A stretch of 64,000 nucleotides of DNA from Theionarchaea archaeon (GCA_018992685.1 JACVGT010000003.1:156585-220584), one strand, 5' to 3'. Counted from the stretch's first letter, positions 30,453 through 47,900 are shown. Numbers and translations are program-made. The notes: generated by a model not told the origin, from the letters alone.

Positions 30453-30563
30453 ACAATTCTCTCTCTGTAATTTTTCCTGAAGACGCACTCTCTCGGGGGT
30501 TGTTCTCTTTGTTTGAGGAAATCTTTTTAAGGAAGGCCAGCAAAATGACATGAGGTGCAAAAA

Positions 30564-30905: not shown

Positions 30906-31143
30906 CCTGTTTCTTTCTTTTCCTTTTTTCTTTTCGGTTTTTTCTTTCGTCTCTTTGAGTGGTACGCTGCAGAGGGTCGTTCACCTGAAAAGCACCCGAA
31001 TTCGGTACCATCGACATTTTTGTCCCACGGCATGACAAAAGAAAGATATTTACATGCCATACTGAGTCTCTATGATCACTTAAAAGAATTCAGACTGAAG
31101 TGTGTGGGAAAACTCTTAAGAACCGTTCTTTCAATATCAATGT

Positions 31144-31509
31144 ATGAAACCAGTCTACACAGAGAAAGCACCAAAACCAGTGGGTCCGTACTCACAGGCC
31201 GTGAAGAGCAACGGATTCCTGTTCGTTTCGGGGCAATTAGGAGTGGACGTCAAAGGAATCACGACGGATACCATAGAAGGTCAGACAGAGCAATGTATCC
31301 TCAACATACGAAACATTCTTGAACAGGAGGGATTGTCACTGGAGAAAGTAGTCAAGGCTACTGTCTACCTTGCGGATATGAATGATTTTCAGAAGATGAA
31401 CTCTGTTTATGAGAAATATTTTACAGGAAAGCCTGCGCGAGCTGCTGTAGGAGTCTCTTTGCTGAAGAACTTCAAGGTTGAGATCGAGGTTGTAGCAACC
31501 TATCAATAA
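31144..31509 (+). CDS. ridA: RidA/YjgF family imine deaminase
   Basis: APKPVGPYSQAV, FVSGQL, VVKATVYLADMNDF..MN.VY, PARAAV, VEIEVVA. Confidence 0.93.
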   Translation: MKPVYTEKAPKPVGPYSQAVKSNGFLFVSGQLGVDVKGITTDTIEGQTEQCILNIRNILEQEGLSLEKVVKATVYLADMNDFQKMNSVYEKYFTGKPARAAVGVSLLKNFKVEIEVVATYQ

Positions 31510-31695
31510 TGGACCGGAGCACCTGCAGGAATATTCCTCACGTCCTCCTCCTTTTCATTTTTTGCGAACTGATCCTCCAGGGTTGATGACAAAGAGTTCT
31601 CTGGATACAATATGCTGGAGCGCTCTTGAGAAAACCCGTATATTTCCGGAACAATGCTTTTCAAGATCATCCCTAGTTGGACTACTGGTGGTATT

Positions 31696-32862: not shown

Positions 32863-33026
32863 TCGCAAGAGGAAGCCGCCTCTTCCCACATGTGAACACT
32901 GGGGGCAATGGTTTCAATTGAAATCGTCCATGGCCAGAAAAGAGTCGAAATCTCTATCAGATATGTGACAGGTCAAAAAGCCCTCGCTCTTAATTTCCTT
33001 TTCCAGGATATGCAGAACGCAGCAGG

Positions 33027-34085
33027 CTACATCCTCTTGTTCAGTATGTCACTGATTTCCCGTGTGGCTTTCAATCCACTCCCTGTCAACACGGCTGCCC
33101 GTGATTTTGAGGGGTCTACCTTTCTCAGAGCGGCCATCACAGACGCAGACGTGGGTTCAATGAACAATCCCAGGCTGACAGCTTTCTTCAGGCCTTCAGC
33201 TATTTCCTTTTCTGAAACAACCACAAGTTCCCCATTCTGCCGGACGATTTTCAGTATCTCCTGCAGTCGCGGCGGGTGTTCCACGAGCAATCCCTCGGCC
33301 ACAGACTTTTCACATGTCCTCTCTTTCTCATACAGTGCATTGTACACAGGTGAACACACTTCAGGCTGTACTCCCACCAGGTTGGGGATCCGCTCAATCA
33401 CATCAGACTCATACAGGTGCTTGAATCCCAAATAGGCTCCGTAATACAGCGAGCCTGACCCCACAGGTACAACCACGACATCAGGCACGTCCCAGTCGAG
33501 CTGCTCGCCAATCTCGTATGCAATTGTCTTCATTCCCTGTAGAAACCAGGGATTCCACTGGTGAGATGCATAGTACACAGTCTCAGCCCGTTTCAGTGCC
33601 TCCTTCCTGGTATCCTCGCGGGTTCCTTCAACCTTCCTCATGTCTGCCCCGAATGCTTCTATTTGAAAGACTTTCCCCTGCGAAGCATAGGCCGGGACGT
33701 AAATCTCAGCCGTGATTCCAGCTCTGGCAGCATATGCAGCAATGGAGGCACCCGCATTTCCTGAAGAATCCTCCACAATTCGAGGTATGTTGTGGCGGTG
33801 CAGGACAGACATCATCACTGTTGAACCTCTATCCTTGAAGGACCCGGTGGGAAAGAAGAAATCAAGTTTGTAATAACAGTTATCAATGAAAACGAAAGGA
33901 GTATGTCCTTCGTCAAAGGATACACGTTTTTCCGTGCCCAAGTAGGGCTGATAACGCCACAGTGATGATCCCTTCAGCTCTCTAACATCAAACTGCTGTT
34001 CTTCTAGTACCTCTACAGGGCCTCCACAGACACACTTCCAAGCAGTCTCTTCCACTTCGTGACCGCATCGAGAACACACAATCAT
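33027..34085 (-). CDS. Threonine-synthase-like PLP enzyme, paralog 2
   Basis: CSRC...[49 protein letters not shown]-coupled to tfb. Confidence 0.85.
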
Positions 34086-34987
34086 ACATCCACGTCCAGG
34101 CCCAGCTTGTCCTGAAAGTCTTTATACCTGTTCCGCACGGTCACCTCCGTCACTTTGGCAATCTCTGACACTTCCCTCTGTGTCTTCCTCTCGTCATGTT
34201 CAATACTTGAAATATACAAAGCAGCAGCCGCAGCACCCATGGGTCCCTTTCCAGACGTGAGACCCAAATCCATTGCCTGCTTCAGAATTTCTACAGCCCT
34301 TCTCTGGACCTGTGCAGAAACTCCCAGTTCAGAAGCAAACCGAGGAATGTAATCCAGTGGGTTGGTAGGTGGGAGCCTGATACCTAGCTCTCTCATAATG
34401 TATCGGTAACTACGTCCAATTTCCTTCTTTTCCACCCGTGCATACTCAGCAATTTCATCCAGGGTTCTGGGCACCTTGCACTTCCTGCACGATGCATACA
34501 GACATCCTGCTGTTACTCCTTCAATGCTTCTCCCTCTTACTAATCCCTCTTCAATTGCGCGCCTATACAGAATAGCTGCCGCCTCCCTGATATTCTTGGG
34601 AAGCTGCATGTGGGAGGATAGCCGGTTTAGTTCAGTCAAAGCGAAAGCCAAATTACGAGACATGGCATCAGAGACCCTAATCCTCCGCTGCCACTTACGC
34701 ATCCTGTAAATCTGAGCTCTTTTTCCAGGGTTTAAATCTCTTCCATGGATGTCTCTATCTCTCCAGTCGATATCAGTAGACAACCCCTTATCATGGATCA
34801 TGTAAGTCATTGGGGCTCCGGTACGTTCTCTTTTGTCTCTCTGTTCAGAATCAAAAGCACGCCATTCAGGACCTGAATCCAGCAAGGTTTCCTTCACAAC
34901 CAGCCCACATTCAGAACAGATTACCTCAGCCCTATCATAATCGTGGTAGAGGTTAATACTACCACATTCGGGACATTGGTCATTCAT
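34082..34987 (-). CDS. tfb: Transcription initiation factor IIB (TFB)
   Basis: CPECGS zinc ribbon, GPEWRAF, HDKGLST, two cyclin repeats (RGRSIEG; TSGKGP), [11 protein letters not shown]. Confidence 0.98.
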
Positions 34988-35177
34988 GGTTTCTCCCTCT
35001 CTCTCGGAAAAAAGGTAACACCTTGATCAGACCTTCTAGTATTGCCTGTTTAAATAACTTTCGCTCTATGGTGCAGTGATGCAACTGATTCTGGTAAACA
35101 GAGCTGAAAAAGAAAAGGACACCTTCCATTATTTATTACTCTCAGTGATAAAATACATTTTAAAGGTGGGGTAAGAA

Positions 35178-36506
35178 ATGGATAGCATGACACTGGTACA
35201 CCTTGGTATTGACAGCACTGATTCATTGACCAAAGGGATGTGCACCAGCTACCTGGGTACAGTACTTGCTAAGAGAGTTCTCCGCGCTGGCGCTGTTTTG
35301 GCTGATTATCCCAATTTAATACGCCTGAACCCAAACATCCCGTATAAGACCAGGGGGAATGGGGCTGTAGTCCTGCGGTTGGAGGTTCCAGATTCCCAGG
35401 TTCGAGACATGGTGGAATATGCTCAGGAGACGGTAGAGGAACTTGCAGTGTTTTCTGATCCACAGACCAATCCGGGCATTGCTGTTCTGAAAGGAAGGGT
35501 TCCAGATGTCTTACATCACTTTTATGAAAGAGCGTTGCACCGGCTCCTCACAGTAAGGGAGGCCTACAGCACAGCAGAGAAGGCAGGAGCTTTTCTCAAA
35601 GGGTATAAGAATAGGAGAGGCGTTGTGGGGGCACTGGCGGGCGTTGGTGAGCCATTGCTGCACGATCACACGTTCGAACTACTGGTGTACAGGAAAGAGG
35701 AGAACTGGGGAAAAGATAGGCACATAAATGAAGAATCAGTTATTAGAATGGATAAGACAGTTGACGATGTTTTTTTTAACTATGATAACGAGGAGAAAAC
35801 GGTATGTATAGCCCCACACACGGTATGCCCTGTGCTTGCGGGTATCAGGGGGGAATCGGCAGAAAGCGTGTTGCGGGGACTTTCCATGATAGACCTGGGA
35901 GAAGAGTTCACGGATTCTGTGATCTTCAGGACGAATCAGCACACTAATGTACACTTCGAAAGGGTCAGGACAGTGGCAGAGATTAGGGATTATAGTTCTG
36001 TCATTGTTGAAGGTACGGTATCTGGATATCCCATGATTATCCGCGGAGGGCATGTTTTCTTCGAGCTCGAGAACAATGGGGTGATCCGCTGCGCTGCCTT
36101 TGAACCCACCAAGAGCTTCCGGGAGGTCGTTCGTCGCTTGCAGGCAGGAGACACAATCCGGGCATATGGAGGCTGCAATCGTGGGGGAAAGAACAGGGTA
36201 AAGACCATCAATCTTGAACGGCTGGACATCATAGCAGTTAGGAATCATGTGTATTCCAATCCTATTTGTTCCTCATGTGGGAAATCAATGAGTTCTGAAG
36301 GAAAGGGGAAAGGGTTTCAGTGCAAACGATGCAAAGTCAGAAAGGTAGAAAAAGAACTCGTCAGGATTGAAAGAGAGATTTCACCAGGTTCTTATGAACC
36401 ACCACCATCAGCGTGGAGGCATCTGTACAAGATGCTGGGGAGAAAAAGGACAAACAAAGGAAAACCTGATGTGATAGAATCCTGGATACAAGTGCGGAAG
36501 GGTTAG
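35178..36506 (+). CDS. tiaS: tRNA(Ile2) agmatinylcytidine synthetase TiaS
   Basis: GIDSTDS..GMCTSY, LIRLNPNIPYKTRGNGA, PVLAGIRG, FRTNQHT, GGHVFF, AAFEPT, C-terminal zinc ribbon, RHL.K. Confidence 0.96.
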   Translation: MDSMTLVHLGIDSTDSLTKGMCTSYLGTVLAKRVLRAGAVLADYPNLIRLNPNIPYKTRGNGAVVLRLEVPDSQVRDMVEYAQETVEELAVFSDPQTNPGIAVLKGRVPDVLHHFYERALHRLLTVREAYSTAEKAGAFLKGYKNRRGVVGALAGVGEPLLHDHTFELLVYRKEENWGKDRHINEESVIRMDKTVDDVFFNYDNEEKTVCIAPHTVCPVLAGIRGESAESVLRGLSMIDLGEEFTDSVIFRTNQHTNVHFERVRTVAEIRDYSSVIVEGTVSGYPMIIRGGHVFFELENNGVIRCAAFEPTKSFREVVRRLQAGDTIRAYGGCNRGGKNRVKTINLERLDIIAVRNHVYSNPICSSCGKSMSSEGKGKGFQCKRCKVRKVEKELVRIEREISPGSYEPPPSAWRHLYKMLGRKRTNKGKPDVIESWIQVRKG

Positions 36507-36518
36507 TGACTCATGGAC

Positions 36519-38816
36519 TTATTGGAGTGCGGTCTCATATATCGTGAAGGCATTGGACAACTCATGCAGGATATCGCCAATCCACGTTCTTGCAGCTTTG
36601 AATGTGTTTTCCCGGTCACTTCCTGCTATGATAATGATCGTTTGTCCCTCAGAGAATACATTGTATTTAACAAAGACTTTTTGAGCTCCTTCTTCTTCCA
36701 AAGACGCTTTCTCTTCCTCTGTCAGGAGCAGGCTTACCACGTCGGTGACCACCCGTGCTTGATGTCCTCCCAGGATGACTAGGTGTTTTCGGGATTTCAG
36801 TGCTTCAAGGCACACGTGACATGAGCTCTTCTCCACAGGAAATCCCTGCCTGTGTAACATGCTAACCACGAACTCCCCCGCTTCTTCGTCAAAGGCATTG
36901 TTAACCACGGTGACAGGTTCAGTGACATCGTACACCAGGAACCCGTGATCTTCAACAGTAACCTCTCCCGGATTGTCAACAGTCTCTGGAGACGACAGGA
37001 ATGGATAGAACGTACCACTGGCCACTGGCCATCCCGTGTGCAGGCGGATCTCCTGGAGGTCTGGGGTACTGTCTGAAATTCCAGACAAGTTTAAAACTCT
37101 CAATATGAGCGTATTTTCCTTTACAAAGGGCAGGATAATTATTCTCTCTGCATCGACCTCAAAAATAGCGGGTATGTCCAGTGCTTCTAGAACGGCTGAG
37201 AAATCAGACGTGGCCTCTTCTCCATTTCCTCTCTCTTCTGGAATCCACCAGTCGTAAAAGGGCCGGACGTCACGATAGTACTCCATTCCCACGGGCGGAA
37301 CCATTACAGCGTATTCAGGTAGTGGATTGACGGTTCGTTCTTCCCCCCATTCATCATATTGACCCGCCTCTCCCGTTGCCACAACCTGACCTCCCTGTTC
37401 CACAAATGCTTTCACCTTCTCAATATCTGTATCTCCCATGCAGGCTGTATTGGGTAGTATCACTGTATGGAACGCATCCAGATCATCGAGCGAGAAGAGA
37501 ACCTTGTAGGGAACATTGAATTCCAGAAGCATCATGGATATTCCCATGAACTCAGTGTAAAAGTCTCCTTCATACTCATGCTGGTAGAAATCAATGGTGC
37601 CCTTAGAGTAGTACACTCCCACATTCGCCCACATCTCTGGACCGTGGTAATACTCAGCATACTGATCAATCCAGGCGAAGATCTTCTTCTGCTGGGTCAG
37701 ATCAGCTGTCCCAGACATGTATGGTGCTTTTGTGTCGTAGAAATTGCACCCTGCAGTCAGGACAGAGGCAGAAAGCATTCTTTGACCTTCACCATCAGAG
37801 GAATACGCCAGAATCCATGACGGGTGGTCTGTGTCCAGTCCTCTGTAAAAAAGATAGGTGGCCAAGTCCCTCAGATAGTTGTAATAATCATGTGTTTTCT
37901 CACTATATGACGCTGCAGGATATTCATGCGCCAGACAGTCTGTAACCCTTCTCAGGAGGACAGGGCTCCACGCCTCCCTCACACTTCCCACGTCAATGCC
38001 GTGCCAGTGTTCTACAATGAGTTCGCACACAGGATTGACTGCCTTTATGGCATCGTTCAATTCTTTGATGAAGCTGGTGATAACATTCTGTCTCCATAGA
38101 ATCCAGGTTTTCCAGGTCTTATCATCCCAGTCAACAGTATCAGGAAGCCTTGATCCTGTATCTTCTCTGAATTTCCGTCTGCAGTCTTCACAGTGGCAGG
38201 CCCAGTTGTCTTCCCAGTCTCCGAAATCACAGAGGAATTTGGGAATGTCAACCCAGATGCCGTCAATGCCAGTACCAGCCAGCCTCCTGAAATTGGATTT
38301 GACTATCTGGCTGTATTCAGGGTCATTGGGACACAGCCATACATCCTCATCAACCTCACCCACCCAGAAGGCTACATCCCCGTAGAAGACTGCTTTCCTT
38401 CCGTCCATGCCTACCTGCAGCCACTCGGGGTGGTCTGTGTAGATACTGTGGGTTCCCTCGTCGGCTGCACCATCTTTGTTGCGATCAACGTCAGGAGTGA
38501 CGATTTCCAGGGGCCCCTGGTAGATGATTAATGCCATATCAGGGTAGTTTTCATGAAGGTATGCGGAGGCCTTCTCGAGAAACTGAAGGTCAGATGACCA
38601 GTCCCCCTCCAGCAGGGGATCTGAAACCCAGGTTAAAATGACTGACTGACCCCCCTCATGAAGTTCATCAATAGTCTCTGTCATTTCCTGGTCTGTCATA
38701 TCTGGCCAGAGGACGCCTCCTGCAATACGTGCTGAATCAATCCAGGATTGCTGGGTTGCTGCTGGTATCAATGATACAAGTAAGAAGATGATGATCAGGC
38801 ACGATGCTCGTCTCAT
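36519..38816 (-). CDS. Secreted glycoside-hydrolase-like TIM-barrel protein with GH42-type trimerisation domain and S-layer-like C-terminal domain
   Basis: Signal peptide. HPEWLQ, LCPN.P.Y, GIDGIWVD, CHCEDCRRKF. VILPNTACM...FVEQGG.VVATG. C-terminal LVILGG...IIIAGSDRENT. Confidence 0.7.
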   Translation of the reverse strand: MRRASCLIIIFLLVSLIPAATQQSWIDSARIAGGVLWPDMTDQEMTETIDELHEGGQSVILTWVSDPLLEGDWSSDLQFLEKASAYLHENYPDMALIIYQGPLEIVTPDVDRNKDGAADEGTHSIYTDHPEWLQVGMDGRKAVFYGDVAFWVGEVDEDVWLCPNDPEYSQIVKSNFRRLAGTGIDGIWVDIPKFLCDFGDWEDNWACHCEDCRRKFREDTGSRLPDTVDWDDKTWKTWILWRQNVITSFIKELNDAIKAVNPVCELIVEHWHGIDVGSVREAWSPVLLRRVTDCLAHEYPAASYSEKTHDYYNYLRDLATYLFYRGLDTDHPSWILAYSSDGEGQRMLSASVLTAGCNFYDTKAPYMSGTADLTQQKKIFAWIDQYAEYYHGPEMWANVGVYYSKGTIDFYQHEYEGDFYTEFMGISMMLLEFNVPYKVLFSLDDLDAFHTVILPNTACMGDTDIEKVKAFVEQGGQVVATGEAGQYDEWGEERTVNPLPEYAVMVPPVGMEYYRDVRPFYDWWIPEERGNGEEATSDFSAVLEALDIPAIFEVDAERIIILPFVKENTLILRVLNLSGISDSTPDLQEIRLHTGWPVASGTFYPFLSSPETVDNPGEVTVEDHGFLVYDVTEPVTVVNNAFDEEAGEFVVSMLHRQGFPVEKSSCHVCLEALKSRKHLVILGGHQARVVTDVVSLLLTEEEKASLEEEGAQKVFVKYNVFSEGQTIIIIAGSDRENTFKAARTWIGDILHELSNAFTIYETALQ

Positions 38817-39164
38817 GATCTATGTGACCTGTCCATTGATATAAGTCTATGGTGACGTTGTCAGAAGATGAAATCCGGCACTATCTCATCGCAAAGTAGA
38901 GTTCAAAAGGGAAGTCACAAAAGTATCTGAGTACGTAGAATGAAGGCTTCGGGAAAGAGATTACCAAAATCAATTCCTTAGATTGGCAAAATACCCATGC
39001 AGTGCGTTTTAACACCTTTTTGATGTTATCTGCTAGCTCATTCAATTCGTTCTTTGAAAATTCTTCTACATTTCCACTGGCACACTAGTATGCACAATCC
39101 TGCAGCAGCTGGAATTGATATTAAAAACACAAAGCTTTTATAAATTAGTTACAATATGAGAGTG

Positions 39165-39413
39165 ATGGATGATAAATTAGGCGAAGAGATTATCAGAAAG
39201 CTTGAGATGCTAATCAGGATAACAGCAATCAGTGCAGTCAGGGACGAAAGCCTTGAAGACAAGATAAGGATACTATCAACTGCTGGGCTCAAGAATACAG
39301 AAATCGCTGATATATTAGGGAAGAGTCAGTCGAACATAGGAGTAAGGCTTTCGATGATCAGAAAGAAAAAGGCAAAAATCGTCGAAAATGAGTGTGAAGA
39401 ATCTCAACAATGA
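39165..39413 (+). CDS. Small coiled-coil + HTH protein (array member 1)
   Basis: EEIIRKLEMLIRI helix, KIRILSTAGLKNTEIADILGKSQSNIGVRL HTH. TTTTATAA at 39136-39143 suggests a leaderless start at ATG 39165. Confidence 0.78.
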   Translation: MDDKLGEEIIRKLEMLIRITAISAVRDESLEDKIRILSTAGLKNTEIADILGKSQSNIGVRLSMIRKKKAKIVENECEESQQ

Positions 39414-39488
39414 AAATCCAAAATCAGATTGCCGAAAATCAAGATACCAAAGGAAATGTTCTAAATGGGCCCGATATATGGGTTGACA

Positions 39489-40316
39489 TCATGATATACT
39501 CAATTTGCTGTATGCAAAGAGTATTCTCGCTGTGTCAGTCCCATCAATTACGCAATAATAGAGTTTCATATTCTTGCTTCCGCTAAGATTGGAAACGCAT
39601 GTCTCTAGTAGTTTTATGACATCCGTATCTATCTCTCCAACATGCTGAACTACAAACAATTCTGCTGGTTCTGTCATAAGTCTCAATACCTGATTTCCTC
39701 TCTTTCCACATTTGTCTATTGTGAGTTTTCTTACAGAGGGACCTTTAAGAAGAAAAGCTGTGCTTATTCTTTTCCCTCTTAAAATGATGCGAGAAGAATA
39801 GAGATCACTTCTTTCACCTCCCCAATCCTCAGGGATGAATTTCTCCCCAATAATGGAGGCCAATGATTCTTTTAATTTTCTTTCACTCATTTTCACAGGG
39901 ACAAAATCTTTGACAGCCTTAGGATTAACATTCCTGACTTTCCTAAAGGAATCAATGTCATCAACATATACTCTTTCACAAGAGGTTGAAATATCCGAAG
40001 ATTTCGATATTTTCGCCTTTCTCTTGATTTCTTTCAGAACAGGTTCGAATTCATAATTCAGTCTGGTCAGGAGATCTACCAATAGTCTTCTCTTGGTTGT
40101 TGTGGTGTTGATTCTGAAAAAATCGGTCTTGATCTTGTTCATTTCCCTGATGAAGGTCTCTTCATCCGGAATGCGTGAATTCTCCTCTACCCAAGACAAA
40201 TAGACTTGAGAAGCTCTGATCGGAAAATCATCACTTGGTTCCAAACCTTCTGCTCTTATAAAATCCATGACAAGAGAAAGTATCCTTTTCTTCTTGCTCT
40301 TAGAAATAACTGGCAT
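39489..40316 (-). CDS. Predicted restriction-endonuclease-fold (PD-(D/E)XK-like) nuclease with helical N-terminal domain
   Basis: C-terminal domain SE..LKE...DWGGERSDLY...TAFLLKG...GNQVLRL...FVVQH...YCVIDG.D.ARIL has the helix-E / beta-D / beta-K / helix-Q layout of Mrr-like nucleases. Assigned by eye. Confidence 0.55.
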   Translation of the reverse strand: MPVISKSKKKRILSLVMDFIRAEGLEPSDDFPIRASQVYLSWVEENSRIPDEETFIREMNKIKTDFFRINTTTTKRRLLVDLLTRLNYEFEPVLKEIKRKAKISKSSDISTSCERVYVDDIDSFRKVRNVNPKAVKDFVPVKMSERKLKESLASIIGEKFIPEDWGGERSDLYSSRIILRGKRISTAFLLKGPSVRKLTIDKCGKRGNQVLRLMTEPAELFVVQHVGEIDTDVIKLLETCVSNLSGSKNMKLYYCVIDGTDTARILFAYSKLSIS

Positions 40317-40325
40317 CCAATCCCC

Positions 40326-40709
40326 TTACATATCGTTTATTCCGAATTCTTGCTTCAGGATTCGGCTGATCCCAAGAATTCTATCCACCTTTCTTTTCCT
40401 GTAAATGCGATGGCCTTCACTCGTTAATTTCCATAATTCAATTAGCCCTTCATTCTTCAGGCTGGTCAATTCCCGGGATACGTTGGATTCTTTCATTTGA
40501 AGAAGCTCCGTGATATCATCAACCGTTCTTTTTTCATTTACAGCTAAAAAGACCTCAGCTTTCCTTTTTGATTTTCCAAAAAAGCTCATGATCTCAGCCA
40601 GTATGTTGTCTTTATTTGCTTTTGTAAGCAGTTCCATCGAGCAATCTATAGCTTCCAGATGCCATTTTATTTCTCTAATGTCTCTCGTGGCTTCATCGCT
40701 CTCAACCAT
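40326..40709 (-). CDS. Coiled-coil + winged-HTH protein (array member 2)
   Basis: IREIKWHLEAID helix, KRKAEVFLAVNEKRTVDDITELLQMKESNVSRELTSLKNEGLI. ATG 40709 just after the upstream stop. Confidence 0.8.
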   Translation of the reverse strand: MVESDEATRDIREIKWHLEAIDCSMELLTKANKDNILAEIMSFFGKSKRKAEVFLAVNEKRTVDDITELLQMKESNVSRELTSLKNEGLIELWKLTSEGHRIYRKRKVDRILGISRILKQEFGINDM

Positions 40710-40713
40710 TTCA

Positions 40714-41028
40714 TCACTTCCCAATCGGAAATATCTTTTTATAGAATTTGCCACCAGGTTTGTCAACTTCATAGATAATGCCCAGTTCTTCCCATTCCGC
40801 TAGGATTGGTGACAAAGTTCCACTAGTGACACCTATGATGTCTGCTATTTCATTTACGCTATGAGCCCCATCACATGCATTGTACCCCCTGATGTAATTT
40901 TGCTTCAAATTATTCCGCTTTCCATGCACAACAATTTCTCTCACTTCATCTTCGTCGAAGGCAATTCTTCTTAGAAGGGAAATTATGATCTCATTTTGTT
41001 CGATGATCTTTTCTAGTTCCTGTTTCAT
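40714..41028 (-). CDS. Coiled-coil + winged-HTH protein (array member 3)
   Basis: LEKIIEQNEIIISLL, YNACDGAHSVNEIADIIGVTSGTLSPILAEWEELGII. ATG 41028 follows GAAGGTG (alternative start 41067). Confidence 0.8.
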   Translation of the reverse strand: MKQELEKIIEQNEIIISLLRRIAFDEDEVREIVVHGKRNNLKQNYIRGYNACDGAHSVNEIADIIGVTSGTLSPILAEWEELGIIYEVDKPGGKFYKKIFPIGK

Positions 41029-41063
41029 GCTAACACCTTCAGGTTTCTGACGTTGAACGTGGT

Positions 41064-41177
41064 TCATAGATGCCTCTTATTCTTCCTCATCTCTAGATCC
41101 CTGGTTGCTCGTCTCAGCAAGAACTCTTCCTCATGCTCTAGCAATCTCTTGAAGACATCTTCATTCTTCTTGCTCAT
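41064..41177 (-). CDS. Unannotated 37-aa charged helical peptide inside the wHTH operon
   Basis: MSKKNEDVFKRLLEHEEEFLLRRATRDLEMRKNKRHL*. Start overlaps the upstream gene end. Stop forms ATGA with ATG 41067. Confidence 0.55.
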   Translation of the reverse strand: MSKKNEDVFKRLLEHEEEFLLRRATRDLEMRKNKRHL

Positions 41178-41550
41178 TCACATCAACTTCCTCTACGATT
41201 TCTTCATTCTTCTTTTCAGCCGATTCGGTCTCCGGGGGCTGTATGCCTACTTCTTCCAATGAAAAGACCTTACGATATCTCTTCTTGTAATCTGGATGAA
41301 TTTCCATTATACCCATAGCACACCATTTTTTCCAATGATTTCTCACAGTTTTTGACGCAACACCTGCAATCTTTGCAATTTCAGGGCTGCTTCTACCATC
41401 ACTTAATTCATATATGAGTTTTTTGGAAATATCATCTAGCTCTGATTCCAGAATCACTTTGACGTTCTGCATGCCCTGAAATTTCGTCCACTTTAGGATT
41501 TCTTCTAACACTTCCAGGAGCTTCCTGCTGGATTCCACCTCCTCCTTCAC
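41161..41550 (-). CDS. Coiled-coil + winged-HTH protein with acidic tail (array member 4)
   Basis: LLEVLEEILKW, KKLIYELSDGRSSPEIAKIAGVASKTVRNHWKKW..MGIM. GTG start overlaps the upstream TAG. Confidence 0.8.
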   Translation of the reverse strand: MKEEVESSRKLLEVLEEILKWTKFQGMQNVKVILESELDDISKKLIYELSDGRSSPEIAKIAGVASKTVRNHWKKWCAMGIMEIHPDYKKRYRKVFSLEEVGIQPPETESAEKKNEEIVEEVDVNEQEE

Positions 41551-41849
41551 TAAATCACCCTTTGTGGAAAGCGCTTTCCATCTTCTAATCTGAAAGTAAC
41601 AAGGCCTTCATCTTCCAAGTCCTTGATGGTCAGGCGAACATATTCGCCTGAAACTCTAGCCTTCTTTGCAATCTCACTCATTTCGTTGCGTCCATCACAA
41701 AGCTCATATATCTTCTGCTTCTTTGGAGTTGAGAGAATTGTATACCTCTTTTCCATCATATCCTTGCTGGCAATGACCTTTAGTAGAGCAATGACTTGAT
41801 CCAGTTTTCCTTCGAGTGATCTTAGATCACTTGATGTTTCTGATGTCAT
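41550..41849 (-). CDS. Coiled-coil + winged-HTH protein (array member 5)
   Basis: LEGKLDQVIALLK, KKQKIYELCDGRNEMSEIAKKARVSGEYVRLTIKDLEDEGLV. ATG 41849. Confidence 0.8.
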   Translation of the reverse strand: MTSETSSDLRSLEGKLDQVIALLKVIASKDMMEKRYTILSTPKKQKIYELCDGRNEMSEIAKKARVSGEYVRLTIKDLEDEGLVTFRLEDGKRFPQRVI

Positions 41850-41869
41850 AGTATTCTGTAGACAATAAC

Positions 41870-41878
41870 ATTTAAATA
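41870..41878. promoter_or_regulatory. Palindromic TATA element probably shared by divergent wHTH genes
   Basis: ATTTAAAT(A) sits mid-way in the 47-bp gap between starts at 41849 (-) and 41897 (+). Confidence 0.55.
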
Positions 41879-41896
41879 GTTTACTGTTAAGTTTAC

Positions 41897-42235
41897 TTGG
41901 GTGATCACATAGGAAAGAAAGAAGACATAGAAGTACTCTGGCAGATAAACAAAAACCTAGAGGAAATCTCAATCAAGATAGATCAGCTAATCTCCTTGTA
42001 CAGGTTTGTCCAAGAACATGAACTCGAATGCTTCAGAGAAAAAGTACTTGGGAAATCAAAGATCAGGAGAGAGATCTACGGCATGTGCGATGGAACAAAA
42101 ACAGTCCAAGAAATAGCACGAAGGGCAAACAGATCAATTCAACATGTCAGTATGATTCTCAAGACACTGGAAAGAGGTAGACTGATTGAATCAAGAGAAG
42201 TGGGAAAGAAAAAGTACTATATCCGGATAGCATAA
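41897..42235 (+). CDS. Coiled-coil + winged-HTH protein (array member 6)
   Basis: LEEISIKIDQLISL, IRREIYGMCDGTKTVQEIARRANRSIQHVSMILKTLERGRLI. Start TTG 41897 or ATA 41909. Confidence 0.8.
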   Translation: MGDHIGKKEDIEVLWQINKNLEEISIKIDQLISLYRFVQEHELECFREKVLGKSKIRREIYGMCDGTKTVQEIARRANRSIQHVSMILKTLERGRLIESREVGKKKYYIRIA

Positions 42236-42335
42236 TGACCTTGAGGTGGCAGGATAGATACAAATGTCATTGGGACAACAGATTGGATCGCAGCGATTAC
42301 GATGGATGAAAGAATTCTCAGGAAAAGGAAACATG

Positions 42336-42545
42336 TCAAGAAAGAAGTTCCACCTCAAGCTCTAACAAAGAGGGTATCTCTATTTGCTCTCCTCTCTCAA
42401 GCAATTCAAGAAAGTGTACTTCAACAGCCTTTTTTATATTATTAATCAGTTCATCCAGAGTCCCCCCCTGTGTGAAAATATTCTCTCCGATCCCACGGGC
42501 GCACCGACACTCACTATCATTATATACTTCCATTTTCACGAGCAT
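42336..42545 (-). CDS. HicB/UPF0150-like antitoxin, orphan
   Basis: CARGIGENIFTQGGTLDELINNIKKAVEVH matches the HicB TQG.T.EE...N..EA pattern. No HicA ORF adjacent. Confidence 0.72.
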   Translation of the reverse strand: MLVKMEVYNDSECRCARGIGENIFTQGGTLDELINNIKKAVEVHFLELLERGEQIEIPSLLELEVELLS

Positions 42546-42745
42546 TGCTGTCTTGAGTAATTTGGATTATTGAACTTTGTGGACTTATTGGCTGTCTTCG
42601 AACCTCCCCATGACGTTCCTATTCGAACAAGGAATCCCTGACGGCATAAGCATCACAGCTCATTCTCGCTCATCACAAGGCAAGAAGATACCAAACTAGG
42701 AGTGATAATACAAACCTTTTTTAGGTTCCATCCTTCACCACCCTC

Positions 42746-43531
42746 ATGAAAAAATTGGTCTTGGCCCTTTTCATGCTTGGGACGCTGGCCGCATCTCAAG
42801 GAAGAATAGCATGGTACGGGGAACGAGAATTTGACGAAAATGTGGCATCCCTGGAGCGGCAGGGATACACTGTGAAGTACGTTGACAGTATTGATGAGAA
42901 AACGCTCTCCCGATACGACGTTCTTGTAGTCTGCCTTGCTGAACCATCCCAGAAGGAAAAAGAAGCAATCCTGGACTTTGTGGAAGCAGGAGGTGGTCTC
43001 CTGATCCTCTATAACGCCATGACACACAGCAGCATTGAAGAGGTACTCTCCGGGTATCAGCTGGAAAAAACAGCTGAAGGAGACAGCAACATTGTCTTCC
43101 CATTTCTGCCAGAAGATAAAATAGATGAGCTGAGGAAGAGAATCTCCATTTCTCAGAAAGGAAAAGGAAGAACGCTCGCGGTGGGATACGATCCTGTGGC
43201 GTTCCAGGCAGTGAGTCTGCTATTTGACGTGGACAAGCTACTCGAATTCGGGATGGACTGGCTCTGTCAGGATTGGCATGCAGAACAGACACAGAGTGAG
43301 ATAGCCAAGAACCGATTTTCACTTGCCGTGGTGCTGGGAATTGTGGCAGTTGCTCTGATAGCGGGATATGTCTTGTACAGAAAGAGGAAGCTGAAAGCAC
43401 CAGAGAAACCTGAGTCGAAGGAATCAGAAAAAGCAGAAAAAATACGAGAGTTGAAGGCGAGATTTGTATACGGGGAGGTTTCAAGGGACGAATATCAGAG
43501 AGAACTGGAAAGACTGGAACATTCTGATTGA
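42746..43531 (+). CDS. Membrane-anchored protein with GATase-like extracellular domain and C-terminal SHOCT-like tail
   Basis: Signal peptide, YDVLVV...ILDFVEAGGGLLI, one TM helix, LKARFVYGEVSRDEYQRE. Confidence 0.7.
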   Translation: MKKLVLALFMLGTLAASQGRIAWYGEREFDENVASLERQGYTVKYVDSIDEKTLSRYDVLVVCLAEPSQKEKEAILDFVEAGGGLLILYNAMTHSSIEEVLSGYQLEKTAEGDSNIVFPFLPEDKIDELRKRISISQKGKGRTLAVGYDPVAFQAVSLLFDVDKLLEFGMDWLCQDWHAEQTQSEIAKNRFSLAVVLGIVAVALIAGYVLYRKRKLKAPEKPESKESEKAEKIRELKARFVYGEVSRDEYQRELERLEHSD

Positions 43532-43570
43532 CGGGGAACCCTCTCGGATGAAAAAGAATAAAGAAAGGAA

Positions 43571-44782
43571 TTACATCTGAGGAGCGTCTCTTCCCTCATA
43601 CGTGAATCTGAATCCAGTATCCTTGTCTGGTGGATTTTCCTTCAATATCACACTTGAAGCCACCACTCGCTGTATCTGGTTCGTTCCCTCATAGATCTGC
43701 AGCAGCTTTGCGTCTCGCATCAGTTTCCCAGCAGGATACTCTTCCAGGTACCCATACCCGCCCATGATCTGCACACAGTCTACTGCATTCTGCATGGCAG
43801 CATCAGAAGCGAAATACTTGGCGAAAGCAGATTCTTTACTGTTCCTCATCCCGTTATCGGCCAGCCAGGCTGCATACCGTGTCAGCCACCGAGCAGCCTC
43901 TGTCCTGCAGTCCATGTCAGACAATGTGAAAGAAATCCCCTGGTTCGCTCCAATGGGCTTACCAAATTGATGGCGAATATTGCTGAATTTTGCAGCCTCG
44001 TGCACGCATCTCTGGGCAACTCCAGTGGCAATGGCTGCAATTCCTGCTCTGGTCTTGTCCAATGTCATCATGGCAATCTTGAACCCATCTCCCACCTTGC
44101 CAATGAGACAATCCTCCGGTATATGCACATCTGTGAACATGACTTCTGACTGCACCGAGTTTTTCTGGCCCATCTTCCTTTCTATGTGGCCAATTTCCAC
44201 ACCCTTTGAGTCTGCAGGTACCATGAAACAGGCCAGCCCCTTGTACCCTTTTGAGGGATCAGTAGTGACAAACACACTATGCAAAGAAGCGAGCGGAGCA
44301 TTGGTAATAAAACATTTCGCTCCATTAATCACCCATCCATCTCCCTCTTTTGTGGCTGTAGTCTTGATGGATGCTGCGTCAGAGCCAGATTCCCTTTCTG
44401 TCAAACAAAATGCTCCAAATTGTACCTTTTTCCCCGTGATCAAGGGTGTAATATATTTCTTGAGCTGTTCCATAGTGGCACCAATCAGAATGGGAGCAAA
44501 AGCCAGGTTGTTGCACATGATGGAGGTGGCCAACCCTGCACATCCATACCCAGTTGCCTCTGATACCAGTGTCTCTTCAACCAGTGAGCGTCCTGGACCA
44601 CTTGCTTCTTTCGGTACATGCAAATTCATTAATCCCCATTCGTATGCTTTCTGGACTACGTCCATGGGACACTCATCTTTTCTCTCGAGATCAGCAGCCA
44701 CTGGTGTAATATATTCATGAGTGAACTCTTTTGCCTTGTTGAAGAGTTCTTCTTCTCCTGATGACAGCTTAAAGTCTACCAT
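43571..44782 (-). CDS. Acyl-CoA dehydrogenase
   Basis: FCLTERESGSD, INGAKCFITN, KMG, TLDKTR, R.QFGKPI, QIMGGYGY, RDAKLLQIYEGTNQIQR. ATG 44782 follows GGAGG. Confidence 0.95.
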   Translation of the reverse strand: MVDFKLSSGEEELFNKAKEFTHEYITPVAADLERKDECPMDVVQKAYEWGLMNLHVPKEASGPGRSLVEETLVSEATGYGCAGLATSIMCNNLAFAPILIGATMEQLKKYITPLITGKKVQFGAFCLTERESGSDAASIKTTATKEGDGWVINGAKCFITNAPLASLHSVFVTTDPSKGYKGLACFMVPADSKGVEIGHIERKMGQKNSVQSEVMFTDVHIPEDCLIGKVGDGFKIAMMTLDKTRAGIAAIATGVAQRCVHEAAKFSNIRHQFGKPIGANQGISFTLSDMDCRTEAARWLTRYAAWLADNGMRNSKESAFAKYFASDAAMQNAVDCVQIMGGYGYLEEYPAGKLMRDAKLLQIYEGTNQIQRVVASSVILKENPPDKDTGFRFTYEGRDAPQM

Positions 44783-44906
44783 GATCGTTCCTCCTGAGGT
44801 CACCTTGTTCAGGCCTATTTAAATGTTTACATGTGCCTATGGTGCTCAATTTAACCCATCGAGGATAGCCAAAAACCCGGGAAACTGAGGGAAATGCAGA
44901 ATACCA

Positions 44907-47900
44907 TCAGCCTTCTTTCAGTATTTCAAGGAGAAGGTCCACAAGCTCTTCGTAGTTATTGTCTCTCTGATTGCTCCAGTAGTTGGAGGCAATGTAATTC
45001 CCTGCGTAGTAGTACTCCTCAAGTTGCTTGCAGCACAGTTCTATGCGAGACAGTAACTCCTGTACTCTGGCCCACTTTTCAGGATACTTCTTATCCAGAC
45101 CTTTGTCCAGGACCAGATTCAGCAGCTGTTTTATCAGATCCTCCAGGTTCTCACAGCATGGAGCTTCCCTGCGCCATTCCACATCCACTCCTGAGTCCCT
45201 GATCTTTTCGATAAGTTCCTTGTACCTGGCGTAGCAATCCATCATTCCTCCGTACGCTAGAGGCTGCAGTGATACCTGTGTCCGATGGATCGTTCCCGTG
45301 GGCAGGGTAACCAGAGCAGAATCATCATCAGATACAGGAAATCCATTGGGAGGTGTTCCCGTGGCAGTCACTACATTTAGGGCAGGAGATTCCTCCCCGT
45401 TCACATATGCCTCGAATGTGATGGTTATCGTTTCCCCCGTATCAAGAGGACCCACATTGGCCCAGATGAGAGTCATTGTGCTGTCTGGATCCACAACTGT
45501 TTGATCTGGGGAGATGTTGGCTGCATCCTGATAGGTCAGTCCTAGAGACAAGACGTCCACGACCTTCACAGGGTCGAGAGGAACTTCTCCGGTATTCGTT
45601 ATGGTCAACGTGAACGTCACGTTCTGGCCTGGATTCAAAGAAGAGGGAGCTACTGACTTAACCACGTGGATGGCTGGGGCGGCCACGCCAACGGGTGATG
45701 TGTCTTCATCAGACACATCCCCGATGACAGACGTGCCAATGACAATGGCCCTGTTGACGAAGGTTCCTACTCTTCCCGGATCCACCTCCGCTTCGAAGCT
45801 CACCGTAATGATGTCACTCGGATTCATGGCCCCTATGTTCAACCAGGTCAATGTCTGTGTTCTATCAGAGTTATCCACGGTAAAATCAGGCTCATACGGC
45901 AGTCCAGCCACAATGGCTGTTCCTGGTCTGTAGGTCAATCCATCAGGGAGAATGTCTGTCAGCTGCACAGGATCGAGTATCATGTCCCCCGTGTTTTCAA
46001 TGGTCAATTCAAAGTAGACAATTCCTCCGGGGGACGGTACATTAATCTGGGTATTCAGGGTTATCTTCATGAGATCTGTACCGGGCGCGCGCACTGTCCA
46101 CTCATCATCTACTGGTGGATAGTGTCTTTCATATGGGCTGATGCCAAGGAGGGTGGAATAATCTGTAATAGTAGTCACATTAGTGAATACACCCCCCTGA
46201 GGCGGGATGACTGCATCATATTCTAGAATGACGGTGCTACCCACAGGGATTATGGTGTAGCTCCAGGTTACGGTGTTTCCCACAACAGAGGTTGCCGTGG
46301 CTTGAGGTGTGGACGCAATCGATCCTGTATCCAGGATAAGACCCGTCGGCACCACATCTTCGATACTCACGTCGTATGCAGGTGACGTACCTTGATTCTG
46401 AATGGTAATCGTGTAGTGGATGGTATCTCCGGGGAGTCCTTCGGTGATGGACCCCTGCTTATTGATGATGAGGTCGGGCTCAATGATCTCGACATCTGCA
46501 TCATCTGACAGATCGAAAGGTACACCTTCTTCTGTTCCAGTGGATCGCGCCCAGTTTGTCAACGTGACACCATCCTGGTTGGTCACAACGTCCTGGACCC
46601 TTGCTGTTACCGTGATATCCACCGTGTTGGGCCCGGTGAAATTGCCCAGAGTCCAGGTAATTGACTGCCCCACCACCACAGGTACAGGAGATAATCCCAA
46701 GGTGTCATTGTAGGTCGAACTCACGTACTCCAGTCCTGCAGGCAGGGTGTCTATGACCAGGACATTCTCGTAAGAAGAAGCACCCCAGTAGGAAATTGAC
46801 ACATCAAATGTTATTTCTTCCCCAATGGTGGCAGTCTGCACGTCAGGAGTCTTAAATATCCCCTCTACAGTCTGGACCCATGCAGTGTCTGTAGCCGTAC
46901 TGTACACACAGCCTGTAGAACAGTACCCGTTGACAACCACTGTATCAGTGCCCAATGTGCCTGTGATGTCAGCAGAAAGGGTAGCAGTCCACGTACCTCC
47001 AATAGGGATGGGCGCTGACACATTCCAGGTCACCGTGTTCCCCACCACTGCGGGGATTTCCCCCCCGGATCCATTTCCTGCTGCAATGTTGATGAAGTTC
47101 AGGCTGAGAGAATCGACCACATCTACAGATTCTGCCTGGTAGTTGCCTGTGTTGGTAACGGTTATGGTCCACGTGGTACTTCCTCCAGGGGGTCTGGTCA
47201 CTATCTCGGGAGTCTTGCTCACAGTGAGCACAGGAGTCAGGGGCGTGACATTTCTCGTGTTGGTGCGGGTGTAATGCTGGTCACATGCATTGTCAAAATC
47301 AACATACACAGTATTGACATCGGGGGTGACAGTTCCGCAGCTGGTACCATCATCAATAATCCTGAATTGGAGGACCACTGTCTGCCCCTCTGTCATGGGC
47401 CCGATGACCCATATTGGACGAGTCAAGTCTGCAGGGGGTTCAGGACTGGGGCTGGGACCTGAAACCATGGAATCGTAGTAGAATCCCGCAGGTAAATCTG
47501 ACGTAATTACAACATTGTATGCAGTTGGACCATTGTTTCGCACTGTTACGGTGATTTCACCATTGCACGTGGTGATAGTGCCCAGGGTTTGAGAAATGGT
47601 AAATGAAGAGGTGGTTCTCAGGTATCCCGTGTCGCACGACTGTGGCTCTCTGCAGGGGTCAACAGCCGGGGTTGTGGGGTTGTCATTGCACCCGTAGTGG
47701 ACACACGCAGTATTGGTGGTTGGGCTCGCCGTACATTCACCTGCATCTACCGTAGCATAGACAGAGTAGGTCACTGTCTGGCCTACCAGCAAATCTCCAT
47801 GTACCCAGGGATCAGCCTGCGTACCTGATCCTCCTCCGGGAGGAGCAGGGGTCACAGAAGAGAACGTCATGTTACTGGGGAATACATCCCAGAATTCCAC

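Follow-up and report, generated by a model that had tools for sequence, protein, structure and literature searches.

A candidate archaeal conflict module combining an array of small winged-helix proteins with an interchangeable terminal effector

Genes and features of a low-GC island

The window analysed here, a stretch of 64 kb from a Theionarchaea archaeon, encodes six small helix-turn-helix (HTH) proteins, A to F, and a 275-aa protein, N, within positions 39156-42235, and all seven open reading frames (ORFs) noted in the first-pass annotation are present. They lie in what it had rightly described as an AT-richer island, with a GC content of 0.37-0.41 over 39000-42500 against 0.45-0.53 elsewhere (500-base windows, 30000-50000). 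In G032, a congener of the same genus, both flanks (matching 38569-38817 and 42446-43525 at 78-81% identity) stand on one contig 101 nt apart, which represents the empty site. The features are as follows, with winged HTH abbreviated as wHTH.

38818-42445, no strand: low-GC island of ~3.6 kb, inserted relative to the congener
39156-39413, plus: gene A, predicted 85-aa HTH protein of sigma-70 region 4 type, convergent with N
39489-40316, minus: N, whole ORF, 275 aa
39489-39974, minus: predicted C-terminal nuclease domain of N, residues ~115-275, 'DWGGE' family (AF2 pLDDT 92.7)
40002-40316, minus: N-terminal ~90-aa helical domain of N, the putative adaptor
40326-40709, minus: gene B, predicted 127-aa MarR/ArsR-like wHTH protein, 9 nt upstream of N
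40714-41028, minus: gene C, predicted 104-aa wHTH protein (ORF reaches 41067; start set as in the related locus L082)
41064-41177, minus: 37-aa ORF, probably not a gene
41161-41550, minus: gene D, predicted wHTH protein of 129 aa, more strongly conserved than any other member of the array
41550-41849, minus: gene E, predicted 99-aa wHTH protein, heading the minus-strand operon
41816-41908, no strand: putative divergent E/F promoter, with a TATA box and two flanking palindromes
41897-42235, plus: gene F, predicted 112-aa wHTH protein, divergent from E

For gene A, which has a TATA-like TTTTATAAA immediately upstream, the start at 39156 was adopted, the previously annotated 39165 also being possible, and for gene B the internal methionine that agrees with the orthologues was taken. 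On the minus strand, E, D, B and N follow one another at distances of -1 to 9 nt; the exception to this tight spacing is the D-C gap of 132 nt, which contains the 37-aa ORF. This ORF, which the first-pass annotation had counted in the minus-strand operon with the putative nuclease last, is probably not a gene: L082 lacks it, the D-C gap there measures 28 nt, and the DNA similarity between the two loci breaks at window positions 41028-41213.

Between E and F, the TATA box TTTAAATA (41871-41878) is accompanied by the palindromes GTGATCTTAGATCAC (41816-41830) and GTGATCAC (41901-41908), each of which occurs a single time in the 64-kb window. This intergenic stretch is nearly identical to that of L082 and exceeds the coding DNA in conservation; we infer that the palindromes act as operators. 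A scan of nine ORFs chosen from the ORF list in 39156-42545 revealed neither a P-loop nor any other kind of NTPase domain, and no methyltransferase model matched, which sets the locus apart from type II restriction-modification. A HicAB toxin-antitoxin pair was considered at 42336-42545 and rejected: the HicB_lk_antitox match of this ORF (23.9 bits) is below the cutoff of 27, and there is no HicA-like ORF nearby.

The small HTH proteins and the terminal protein N

Among the small proteins, B alone passes a Pfam cutoff (HTH_5, 25.7 bits over a gathering cutoff of 22), while A and C to F have weak HTH or wHTH matches under every family cutoff. The AF2 model of B (pLDDT 93.1) consists of helices at residues 2-31, 33-44, 48-56, 63-70 and 74-86, a beta wing at 90-105 and then C-terminal helices, the N-terminal helix comprising 30 residues. 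Foldseek matches it to MarR, SlyA, MepR, CadC, CzrA and SmtB (probability 1.0, E 7e-4 to 4e-3). As modelled, B therefore has the MarR/ArsR-SmtB plan, in which a wHTH is set between N- and C-terminal dimerisation helices. The N-terminal helix followed by an HTH, which the first-pass annotation had read as the common plan, accordingly appears in this model, but what it called a coiled coil is the ordinary dimerisation helix of the fold. C to F, whose weak Pfam matches include HTH_20 for F (E 1e-5), are putative wHTH regulators by comparison with family models, B being the one that was modelled. Gene A, earlier listed as a shorter and more distant member of the wHTH set, instead matches Sigma70_r4_2 (E 6e-4) and is better placed with HTH proteins resembling sigma-70 region 4.

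The signature Y-x-x-(C/S)DG-x(4-5)-EIA that had been noted in four of the proteins is found literally in the translations of C, D, E and F, and E and F are paralogues (28% identity). A D-type profile run over the whole 3.0-Mb genome matches solely D, C and E of this cassette, which supports the earlier view of diverged paralogues.

The C-terminal domain of N matches no Pfam or PADLOC model. Its predicted structure was compared by VIA-align with 48,161 chains, and the top match is AF1548 (Z 8.3, rmsd 2.9, 106 aligned), followed by FokI (Z 7.2), MspJI (6.9), AspBHI (6.8), the R.BspD6I small subunit (6.5) and a NucS-type endonuclease (6.1); the best Foldseek matches are to MspJI (E 0.02, probability 0.91-0.98). 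The individual scores are middling, but since the matched nucleases form a consistent set, the modelled domain is assigned to the restriction-endonuclease fold (PD-(D/E)xK superfamily, alpha-beta-beta-beta-alpha-beta core), in line with its initial designation as the enzyme of the locus. Across 36 sequences of the family, E145, K191, Q209 and Q224 are invariant and D164, E168 and D171 nearly so. D171 and K191 are thus conserved; two positions ahead of K191, however, stands a leucine (AFLLKG) in place of the canonical D, E or Q, so that nuclease activity of N is not certain; E145, E168, D164, Q209 and Q224 could serve as substitutes in the predicted active site.

A search of PADLOC-DB v2 with N and 35 relatives gave no shared family, only five single-member matches (best E 0.0019-0.0036). 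The nuclease family comprises ~257 loci in representative bacterial and archaeal genomes. Its bacterial relatives include five loci with methyltransferase-nuclease-UvrD operons, and no more than five of these relatives adjoin an N6_N4 methylase; bacterial relatives also stand beside toxin-antitoxin (TA) or Abi genes. The adaptor domain of N, which likewise matches no Pfam model, shares 37% identity (E 5e-13) with the N-terminal part of the terminal protein of locus L097, the C-termini of the two proteins being different.

Related arrays and their terminal genes

Cassettes with orthologous wHTH types recur in a Hadarchaeota MAG (L002), in Halosimplex marinum (L018) and on a metagenome contig. 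Synteny extends over F / E D C B N in L082, whose cassette is 72-75% identical to the present one; C, D, E and F are 70%, 71%, 73% and 72% identical to their L082 counterparts. The gene immediately preceding N is a B orthologue in all three of L082, L002 and L018, and in the latter two, D-, A- and B-type orthologues directly precede a full-length N. Linkage of nuclease homologues to wHTH arrays in other genomes, on which the first-pass annotation had made its reading depend, is thus seen for full-length homologues in other archaea. The B and N genes overlap in both L002 and L018, and together with the gene order and the 9-nt spacing, this suggests that B is translationally coupled to N. Furthermore, 11 of 28 additional B homologues lie on a contig of the same length as that of an N homologue.

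With the D-type wHTH protein as seed, 18 further archaeal loci were obtained (gene calls here and in the other related loci by a simple ORF finder), and all 18 have three to eight adjacent small wHTH genes on the same strand, followed by a variable end gene. D is 59-65% identical to the D-type genes of the Bathyarchaeia loci L094-L097 (whole-ORF BLASTP), and the mean column identity of the D-type alignment is 56%. C-type genes with 58-65% identity occur in L095, L097, L108, L111 and L129, and A-type orthologues within the arrays of L002 (79 aa), L018 (76 and 68 aa) and many of L094-L129. The end genes of the D-seeded loci are as follows.

DWGGE nuclease: 2 loci
Diverged DWGGE nuclease: 3 loci (hhalign probability 95.6)
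'GID..QIK' protein with the same adaptor as N: 3 loci (by eye)
HEPN_Swt1: 2 loci, L103 and L107 (PADLOC PDC-M34B, E 1e-50 and 1e-39)
Ymh HEPN: 2 loci
Four-TM protein: 4 loci (by eye)
Another TM protein: 1 locus (by eye)
wHTH-PD-ExK: 2 loci
wHTH-Schlafen/AlbA_2: 1 locus

The closer D homologues are mostly on contigs that show no N homologue, which fits the effector swapping looked at directly in the 18 loci. When the adaptor domain served as an independent seed, six new loci were found, all six with wHTH genes directly upstream and one with an effector read by eye as an HNH nuclease. Judged by sequence, the archaeal adaptor domain travels with the arrays and not with the nuclease domain. A search of its profile against 1.84 billion proteins yielded 153 cluster representatives, nearly all with the adaptor at residues ~1-90, and the C-termini behind it include nuclease, CHAT, TIR, nucleotide-cyclase, HNH and coiled-coil or membrane parts. 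Of the adaptor proteins, 82 have a length of 200 aa or more, and their C-termini form seven multi-member classes and nine singletons. Specifically, the CHAT class matches 8tl0 (E 2e-14; Atlas score 0.98), the TIR class AbTIR (E 5e-44) and another class a class III nucleotide cyclase (E 2e-30). The 'GID..QIK', HNH, AAA+ and TM classes and a 21-member class with a D..ExK motif were assigned by eye only, and Protein Data Bank profile searches with the 'GID..QIK' and 21-member classes found nothing. By the same visual reading, sister effectors have GID..QIK or D..ExK motifs of canonical type. Walker motifs, again read by eye, are present in P0230, a protein from elsewhere that also bears the adaptor.

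The distribution is patchy: within its own class, N was found in one of 133 genomes, and among Halobacteria in one of 401; the adaptor was found in seven of 401 genomes in the class of Ca. Bathyarchaeum tardum (G535), which holds L097. Flanking genes vary from locus to locus, and the arrays adjoin OLD-type ATPase-TOPRIM, type I restriction-modification, TIR, PIN and HepT genes as well as integrases.

Interpretation and comparison with known systems

Because a conserved core, swapped effectors, a patchy distribution and defence and mobile-element neighbours occur together, a role in conflict, as immunity or abortive infection, is the reading that we favour. The island probably belongs to a family of archaeal conflict modules that is undescribed and moves horizontally. 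Its members, whose most likely role is antiviral defence or abortive infection, have a core of several distinct small wHTH or HTH proteins (types A to F) and an interchangeable effector as the last gene. No published description of a wHTH-array module was found in the literature searched or in PADLOC, and the locus, for which a PADLOC check had been recommended, matches no PADLOC model. The proposal of an undescribed candidate defence system, with more than normal regulator usage, holds up in the light of the swapped effectors and recurring arrays.

To a more specific model we give an even chance: a previously undescribed archaeal immune system whose sensor would be a hetero-oligomer of three to eight small wHTH proteins, forming a DNA-bound platform without NTPase, cyclase core or guide RNA, onto which interchangeable effectors dock via a new ~90-aa adaptor, with the window carrying the nuclease-armed form. 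The first-pass annotation had proposed a sensor/antitoxin complex that hetero-oligomerises through the N-terminal helices, which is the speculative part of its reading. In the working proposed here for the conflict module, dimers of the wHTH proteins would occupy the palindromes of the E/F promoter and so repress the operon, while B, or a hetero-complex of the array, would hold the effector through the adaptor domain. An infection cue on DNA would then cause the effector to be released or recruited. N would cut DNA, whereas the effectors of sister modules would act by RNA cleavage, NAD depletion, proteolysis or membrane damage.

However, the beneficiary of the module may be a mobile element and not the host, since integrases or a terminase adjoin some arrays. 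The cassette would then belong to a small integrated element as its addiction or exclusion module, with the wHTH proteins as its repressors and antitoxin and an effector that kills cells losing the element or blocks rivals. We regard this as unlikely, even though integrases stand beside the arrays of L094, L107 and L111, an integrase fragment lies in L018, a terminase large subunit is encoded directly upstream of the L105 array, the island is inserted relative to the congener and the tight coupling of B and N recalls toxin-antitoxin pairs: the island in the window holds no integrase, replication gene or terminal repeats, no tRNA gene lies in the 64-kb window, comparison with L082 places the borders of the cassette at gene ends, and no relative was found in IMG/VR viral contigs. 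The two readings also overlap, because defence systems, too, ride on mobile elements.

It is rather improbable that N is a stand-alone type IV restriction nuclease dependent on modified DNA, with wHTH genes that only regulate transcription and form no complex. The structural matches of residues ~126-275, which after the uncharacterised AF1548 include FokI, MspJI, AspBHI and the R.BspD6I small subunit, agree with such a role, as do the lack of a methyltransferase in the island and the bacterial relatives, which often stand alone with a different N-terminal domain. One regulator would be enough for it, yet three to eight distinct wHTH types, each conserved in its own right, are found again in different phyla, the same arrays are followed by effectors other than restriction enzymes (HEPN, membrane, TIR-class and others), and the archaeal N-terminal domain accompanies the arrays. 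That ordinary transcription factors and a housekeeping DNA-repair nuclease are clustered by chance or for a metabolic regulon is very improbable: the MarR/ArsR fold of the small proteins is indeed common, but N and the adaptor each occur in at most ~2% of the genomes searched per class, the congener site is empty, the terminal genes are swapped among toxin-type domains and the flanking genes differ among loci.

Apart from CRISPR and restriction-modification, little of archaeal immunity has been charted, and the known systems are mostly bacterial finds. If true, the conflict-module reading adds a system built on a different principle, in which the conserved core is an array of small DNA-binding proteins, along with a new nuclease family that has no Pfam model. 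The new adaptor domain, which marks effectors, offers a handle for finding further immune genes, and the effector repertoire (TIR, CHAT, HEPN, cyclase) ties the module to a toolkit common to prokaryotic and eukaryotic innate immunity. As a full cassette is present in the cultured haloarchaeon Halosimplex marinum XH63, the hypothesis is directly testable.

Among known systems, the PADLOC candidate PDC-M34 shares its component PDC-M34B with the HEPN_Swt1 end genes of L103 and L107, but no array protein matches PDC-M34A, and N of the window has no PADLOC match. The logic of a conserved sensing core with swapped effectors is the same in type III CRISPR CARF effectors with Csa3, in CBASS and in NTPase conflict systems, where REase, HEPN, TIR, CHAT, TM and cyclase effectors are likewise attached through a small dedicated domain. 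NTPase conflict systems reportedly have effector-associated domains, and the core gene of their operons encodes a STAND or another NTPase. The present module, in contrast, has no CARF/SAVED domain, cyclase core, NTPase or CRISPR, and its core consists of small DNA-binding proteins only. The small proteins do weakly match the wHTH half of Csa3/CasR/CARF models (E 4e-7 to 1e-3, PADLOC-DB v2); an assignment to Csa3/CARF regulators was rejected, as the matches span only model positions ~105-230 of 305 and the proteins, at 85-129 aa, have no CARF domain.

FokI, MspJI/AspBHI and DpnI/HhiV4I-type enzymes, the last with a fused winged-helix (wH) domain (PMC11037411), are fusion endonucleases of type IV/IIS restriction; they resemble N in that an REase-fold nuclease is linked to a distinct part for recognition or as an adaptor. 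The use of winged-helix domains alongside a nuclease and the absence of a methyltransferase partner are further likenesses. However, the wH domain is fused in those enzymes, whereas here three to eight separate small wH proteins are encoded, N carries a helical adaptor and has no sequence-family membership (no Pfam or PADLOC match), and the same array is also paired with non-nuclease effectors. Finally, type II/IV toxin-antitoxin or Abi pairs with HTH antitoxins, such as AbiE (PMC3985639), share a small wHTH gene apparently coupled in translation to a toxic-type enzyme gene, likely autoregulation at a palindromic promoter, and a patchy, mobile distribution. Such pairs have one HTH partner, whereas the present module has many distinct, orthologous wHTH types conserved across phyla and an effector adaptor common to ~16 C-terminal classes.

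The island and its seven genes

In 500-base windows, GC content falls to 0.37-0.41 over 39000-42500, whereas the rest of 30000-50000 stays at 0.45-0.53. ORF calling yields seven real-looking genes in this region, six of them for small HTH proteins (A-F) and one for a predicted nuclease (N); the starts of B, C and E are the methionines that match the orthologs in L082, a metagenome contig with a syntenic cassette.

39156-39413, plus strand: A
39489-40316, minus strand: N, 275 aa
40326-40709, minus strand: B
40714-41028, minus strand: C
41161-41550, minus strand: D
41550-41849, minus strand: E
41897-42235, plus strand: F

A 37-aa peptide counted as an operon gene by the first-pass annotation is probably not a real gene, as its ORF is absent from the L082 cassette. 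In G032, a genome of the same genus, both island flanks lie on one contig, 101 nt apart, so that 38818-42445 was either inserted here or deleted in the other lineage. A repeat search and the ORF list gave no convincing terminal repeats at the edges and no integrase within the island, and a tRNA search found no convincing tRNA gene anywhere in the 64 kb. The host genome is archaeal, and the ORF at 35178-36506, upstream of the island, encodes TiaS (E 1e-92 to the Archaeoglobus enzyme).

Several further genes lie around the island. The minus-strand ORF 42336-42545 encodes a 69-aa HicB-like protein with a sub-cutoff Pfam score and no partner HicA; it is conserved in the congener only over its 5' third (42446-42545), which places the island edge inside this ORF. 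Adjoining the island, a secreted 765-aa protein (36519-38816, minus strand) is conserved in the congener and has weak glycoside-hydrolase-like matches, of which only Glyco_hydro_42M exceeds the cutoff, as well as an S-layer C-terminal match below it. Farther away, a 2193-aa ORF (44907-51488, minus strand) is rich in repeated domains, has a hydrophobic N-terminal stretch and is probably a giant surface protein.

The proposal of six small HTH proteins built from an N-terminal amphipathic helix followed by an HTH is borne out. All six match HTH or wHTH models, mostly under family cutoffs; in Pfam, B exceeds the cutoff for HTH_5 and A resembles sigma-70 region 4, while searches of nine ORFs against NCBIfam and PHROGs gave weak HTH-type matches only. 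In the AlphaFold2 model of B (pLDDT 93.1), an N-terminal helix of 30 residues leads into a winged HTH, with further helices at the C-terminus, and Foldseek places the model among MarR, SlyA, MepR, CadC, CzrA and SmtB. As modeled for B, the N-terminal helix of the small proteins is thus predicted to be the standard dimerisation helix of the MarR/ArsR-type fold. The YxxC/SDG...EIA signature noted at first occurs in four of the six, namely C, D, E and F, and the paralogy also stands: a D-type profile run over the whole 3.0-Mb genome recovers only D (5e-56), C (8e-5) and E (1e-4), making these three the nearest kin of one another in this genome.

Between the window and L082, the E/F intergenic stretch hardly differs. 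Its archaeal TATA box (41871-41878) has on either side one of two related palindromes (GTGATC..GATCAC; 41816-41830 and 41901-41908); each palindrome occurs once in the 64-kb window, and both are candidate operators. This conserved arrangement suggests that wHTH dimers may autoregulate the operon at the E/F promoter. A sigma-70 promoter scan, which has no relevance for an archaeon, did not rise above shuffles.

N folds into two domains in its AlphaFold2 model (pLDDT 92.7). Structural alignment matches residues ~144-269 to AF1548 (Z 8.3), FokI (7.2), MspJI (6.9), AspBHI (6.8), the R.BspD6I small subunit (6.5) and a NucS-type endonuclease (6.1); MspJI is also the best Foldseek match, and a language-model atlas points weakly to Mrr_cat. 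The model thereby assigns these residues a restriction-endonuclease fold, in agreement with the earlier view of N as the single putative nuclease. Across aligned relatives, four residues (E145, K191, Q209, Q224) never vary and five (D164, W165, G167, E168, D171) hardly do; a leucine stands two positions before K191, which makes the catalytic motif non-canonical. The helical bundle formed by residues 1-107 has generic helical-bundle matches only (Z up to 8.0, under the level counted as informative for helical proteins). Neither N nor 35 relatives matched Pfam, NCBIfam, PHROGs, PADLOC or PDB sequences, and profile A1 gave nothing meaningful against the Protein Data Bank.

A recurrent array with an exchangeable end gene

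The expected linkage of nuclease homologs to wHTH arrays is found in other loci. L082 shares 72-75% DNA identity with the window between the stop codons of N and F, and the same gene order (F, then E D C B N), with different flanks. In L002 (a Hadarchaeota MAG) and L018 (Halosimplex marinum), a full-length N is immediately preceded by D-, A- and B-type orthologs together with more small wHTH genes, and B overlaps N in both. Additionally, for 11 of 28 other B homologs among 5.8 billion protein clusters, the longest contig has the size of an N homolog's, from which we infer that they share a contig. The cassette is patchy: N occurs in 1/133 genomes of its own class (this genome alone) and 1/401 sampled Halobacteria. 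A metagenome scan with N returned 2 loci only, some 25 other full-length homologs being known from the cluster search; a B-type search of representative genomes returned two already known loci only, and 15 pattern matches of the N alignment in IMG/VR viral contigs yielded none confirmed.

D, the most conserved array member, has 49 homologs, mostly on contigs showing no N homolog. Its alignment retrieved 18 loci from representative genomes, labelled Bathyarchaeia/Bathyarchaeota (11), other Thermoproteota including Hecatellales, Thaumarchaeota including Nitrosotalea, Thermoplasmata, one unclassified archaeon and one Anaerolineales bin; D identity between this genome and Bathyarchaeia is 59-65%. 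All 18 have 3-8 adjacent small genes like types A-F, mostly on the same strand, and the end gene varies among them.

End genes of the D-seeded arrays
True DWGGE nuclease (the C-terminal family of N): L094, L101
Diverged DWGGE nuclease: L099, L107, L109 (hhalign probability 95.6 over 146 columns)
N-type N-terminal domain with 'GID..QIK' C-terminus: L095, L097, L111
HEPN_Swt1 with Rx4H motif: L103, L107 (match to PADLOC PDC-M34B)
Ymh-type HEPN: L102, L111
Four-TM proteins: L096, L100, L105, L108
Another TM protein: L104
wHTH fused to a D..ExK domain: L098, L106 (similar gene beside the L002 array)
wHTH fused to Schlafen/AlbA_2: L106
No class given: L110

The wHTH-D..ExK proteins (276-289 aa; L002:3441-4310, minus strand, L098:2181-3011, L106:3714-4544) lie inside or beside arrays and, on their motif, constitute a second predicted nuclease type of the system; the L098 and L106 copies lack Pfam matches with E of 0.01 or below, and the proteins have no PADLOC match. 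Two arrays contain two effector genes each, with a HEPN gene mid-array and an adaptor-bearing nuclease last (L107:5319-9746, L111:5435-8589), as if two modules had been joined head to tail. The four-TM end proteins form a ~210-aa family (L096:7830-8456, L100:3565-4188, L105:7894-8520, L108:7829-8464) with several hydrophobic helices and a conserved tail, SKHPFPK..LAGLS..AQLLK; it has no Pfam match over the cutoff and no PADLOC match, and a ~150-aa partner gene precedes it in L100 and L105.

Residues 9-84 of N share 37% identity (E 5e-13) with the start of the L097 end gene, the rest of which differs. A profile of this adaptor domain (A7, 11 sequences), searched against 1.84 billion representatives, matched 153 proteins with E no higher than 1e-3, 38 of them with E no higher than 1e-10; for nearly all 153 the match lies at residues ~1-90. 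The C-terminal parts were classed for the 82 matches of at least 200 aa.

C-terminal classes behind the adaptor domain
D..ExK motif: 21 (by eye)
DWGGE: 17
Diverged DWGGE: 15
'GID..QIK': 7
CHAT: 7 (E 2e-14 to 8tl0; Atlas score 0.98)
Coiled-coil/hydrophobic-tail: two groups of 3
Singletons: 9, among them a TIR domain (E 5e-44 to AbTIR), a class III nucleotide cyclase (E 2e-30) and, both by eye, a Walker-motif ATPase and an Rx4H HEPN

The 'GID..QIK' and 21-member D..ExK classes are putative nucleases from motifs read by eye, and their profiles had no match in the Protein Data Bank. In an independent test, the adaptor profile was run on 401 genomes of the class of G535 (Ca. Bathyarchaeum tardum, the source of L097). 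The domain occurs in 7/401, and the six new loci all have wHTH genes directly upstream of the effector, a B-type gene in 5/6; a contig end cuts one effector short, and one is an HNH nuclease by eye. Overall, B sits just ahead of the adaptor-bearing effector in 13 of the 18 loci that have one. This constant place suggests that B, or a hetero-complex, would dock the adaptor domain. Individual wHTH types are, in turn, conserved across phyla, which argues for fixed, distinct roles like those of subunits rather than a diversifying receptor set.

The nuclease domain outside the arrays

The C-terminal domain of N is widespread, with 257 loci confirmed in representative genomes, of which 80 were kept and 78 had ORFs called. 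Flanking ORFs were scanned at all four positions per locus for L002-L040 and for 94/147 ORFs of L041-L081, those dropped belonging mostly to actinomycete loci (the recurrent upstream ORF of ~1000 aa and the ORFs downstream). N-terminal parts in the bacterial loci are unlike the archaeal one. TA, Abi or R-M genes lie within two ORFs in at least 13 loci besides the kinase and methylase loci described below (PemK, PIN, HicA, AbiTii, Abi_2, HsdM/S, Mrr_cat, HEPN/Toprim).

In 22/78 loci, mostly labelled actinomycetes, a Ser/Thr kinase gene lies directly upstream of the DWGGE nuclease (L027, L030, L032, L033, L037, L041, L045, L048, L051, L052, L054, L055, L058, L059, L060, L062, L065, L066, L068, L072, L076, L078), whose N-terminal part differs from that of archaeal N. 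The kinase has ~456 aa and is accompanied by a ~1030-aa protein without Pfam match where scanned; this conserved three-gene unit looks like another undescribed system. Five bacterial loci (L050, L061, L071, L074, L075; three labelled Pseudomonadota) have an N6_N4 methylase (~1000 aa), the nuclease and a UvrD-type helicase (~700 aa) in a row, which looks like an R-M-like defence operon; L061 has an additional AAA_15/AAA_21 ATPase beside it.

Nature of the module and relation to known systems

The catalytic part of the end gene is freely exchanged between predicted nuclease, RNase, NADase-type, protease, cyclase and membrane domains. Together with the conserved multi-gene core, the dedicated end-gene domain and the patchy distribution, this marks a conflict system, as do, in combination with these features, the empty site in the congener and the array neighbours. 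The latter include defence-type genes (OLD-type ATPase, type I R-M, TIR, PIN, HepT) and mobile-element genes, namely integrases and a terminase:

L094:3547-4818, L107:2713-3903, L111:3024-4073: tyrosine integrase within ~2 kb of the array
L018:3041-3634: tyrosine integrase fragment near the array
L105:3450-4904: terminase large-subunit gene beside the array

Some modules therefore probably ride on integrated elements. The main rival reading is that the cassette serves a mobile element for addiction or exclusion; the integrase and terminase neighbours fit it, and it overlaps the immune reading. On balance, an immune or abortive-infection module is judged the fairly probable reading.

The core has no model in PADLOC-DB v2. 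A full-text search of open-access papers, confined to titles and abstract starts, returned no description of the system, nor do the term-matched passages of PMC4158269, PMC3710099 and PMC6563490 mention it. Within these sources, the initial impression that this is not a named system holds; these arCOGs could be listed in the gene-neighbourhood tables that accompany papers on archaeal dark matter and on HEPN.
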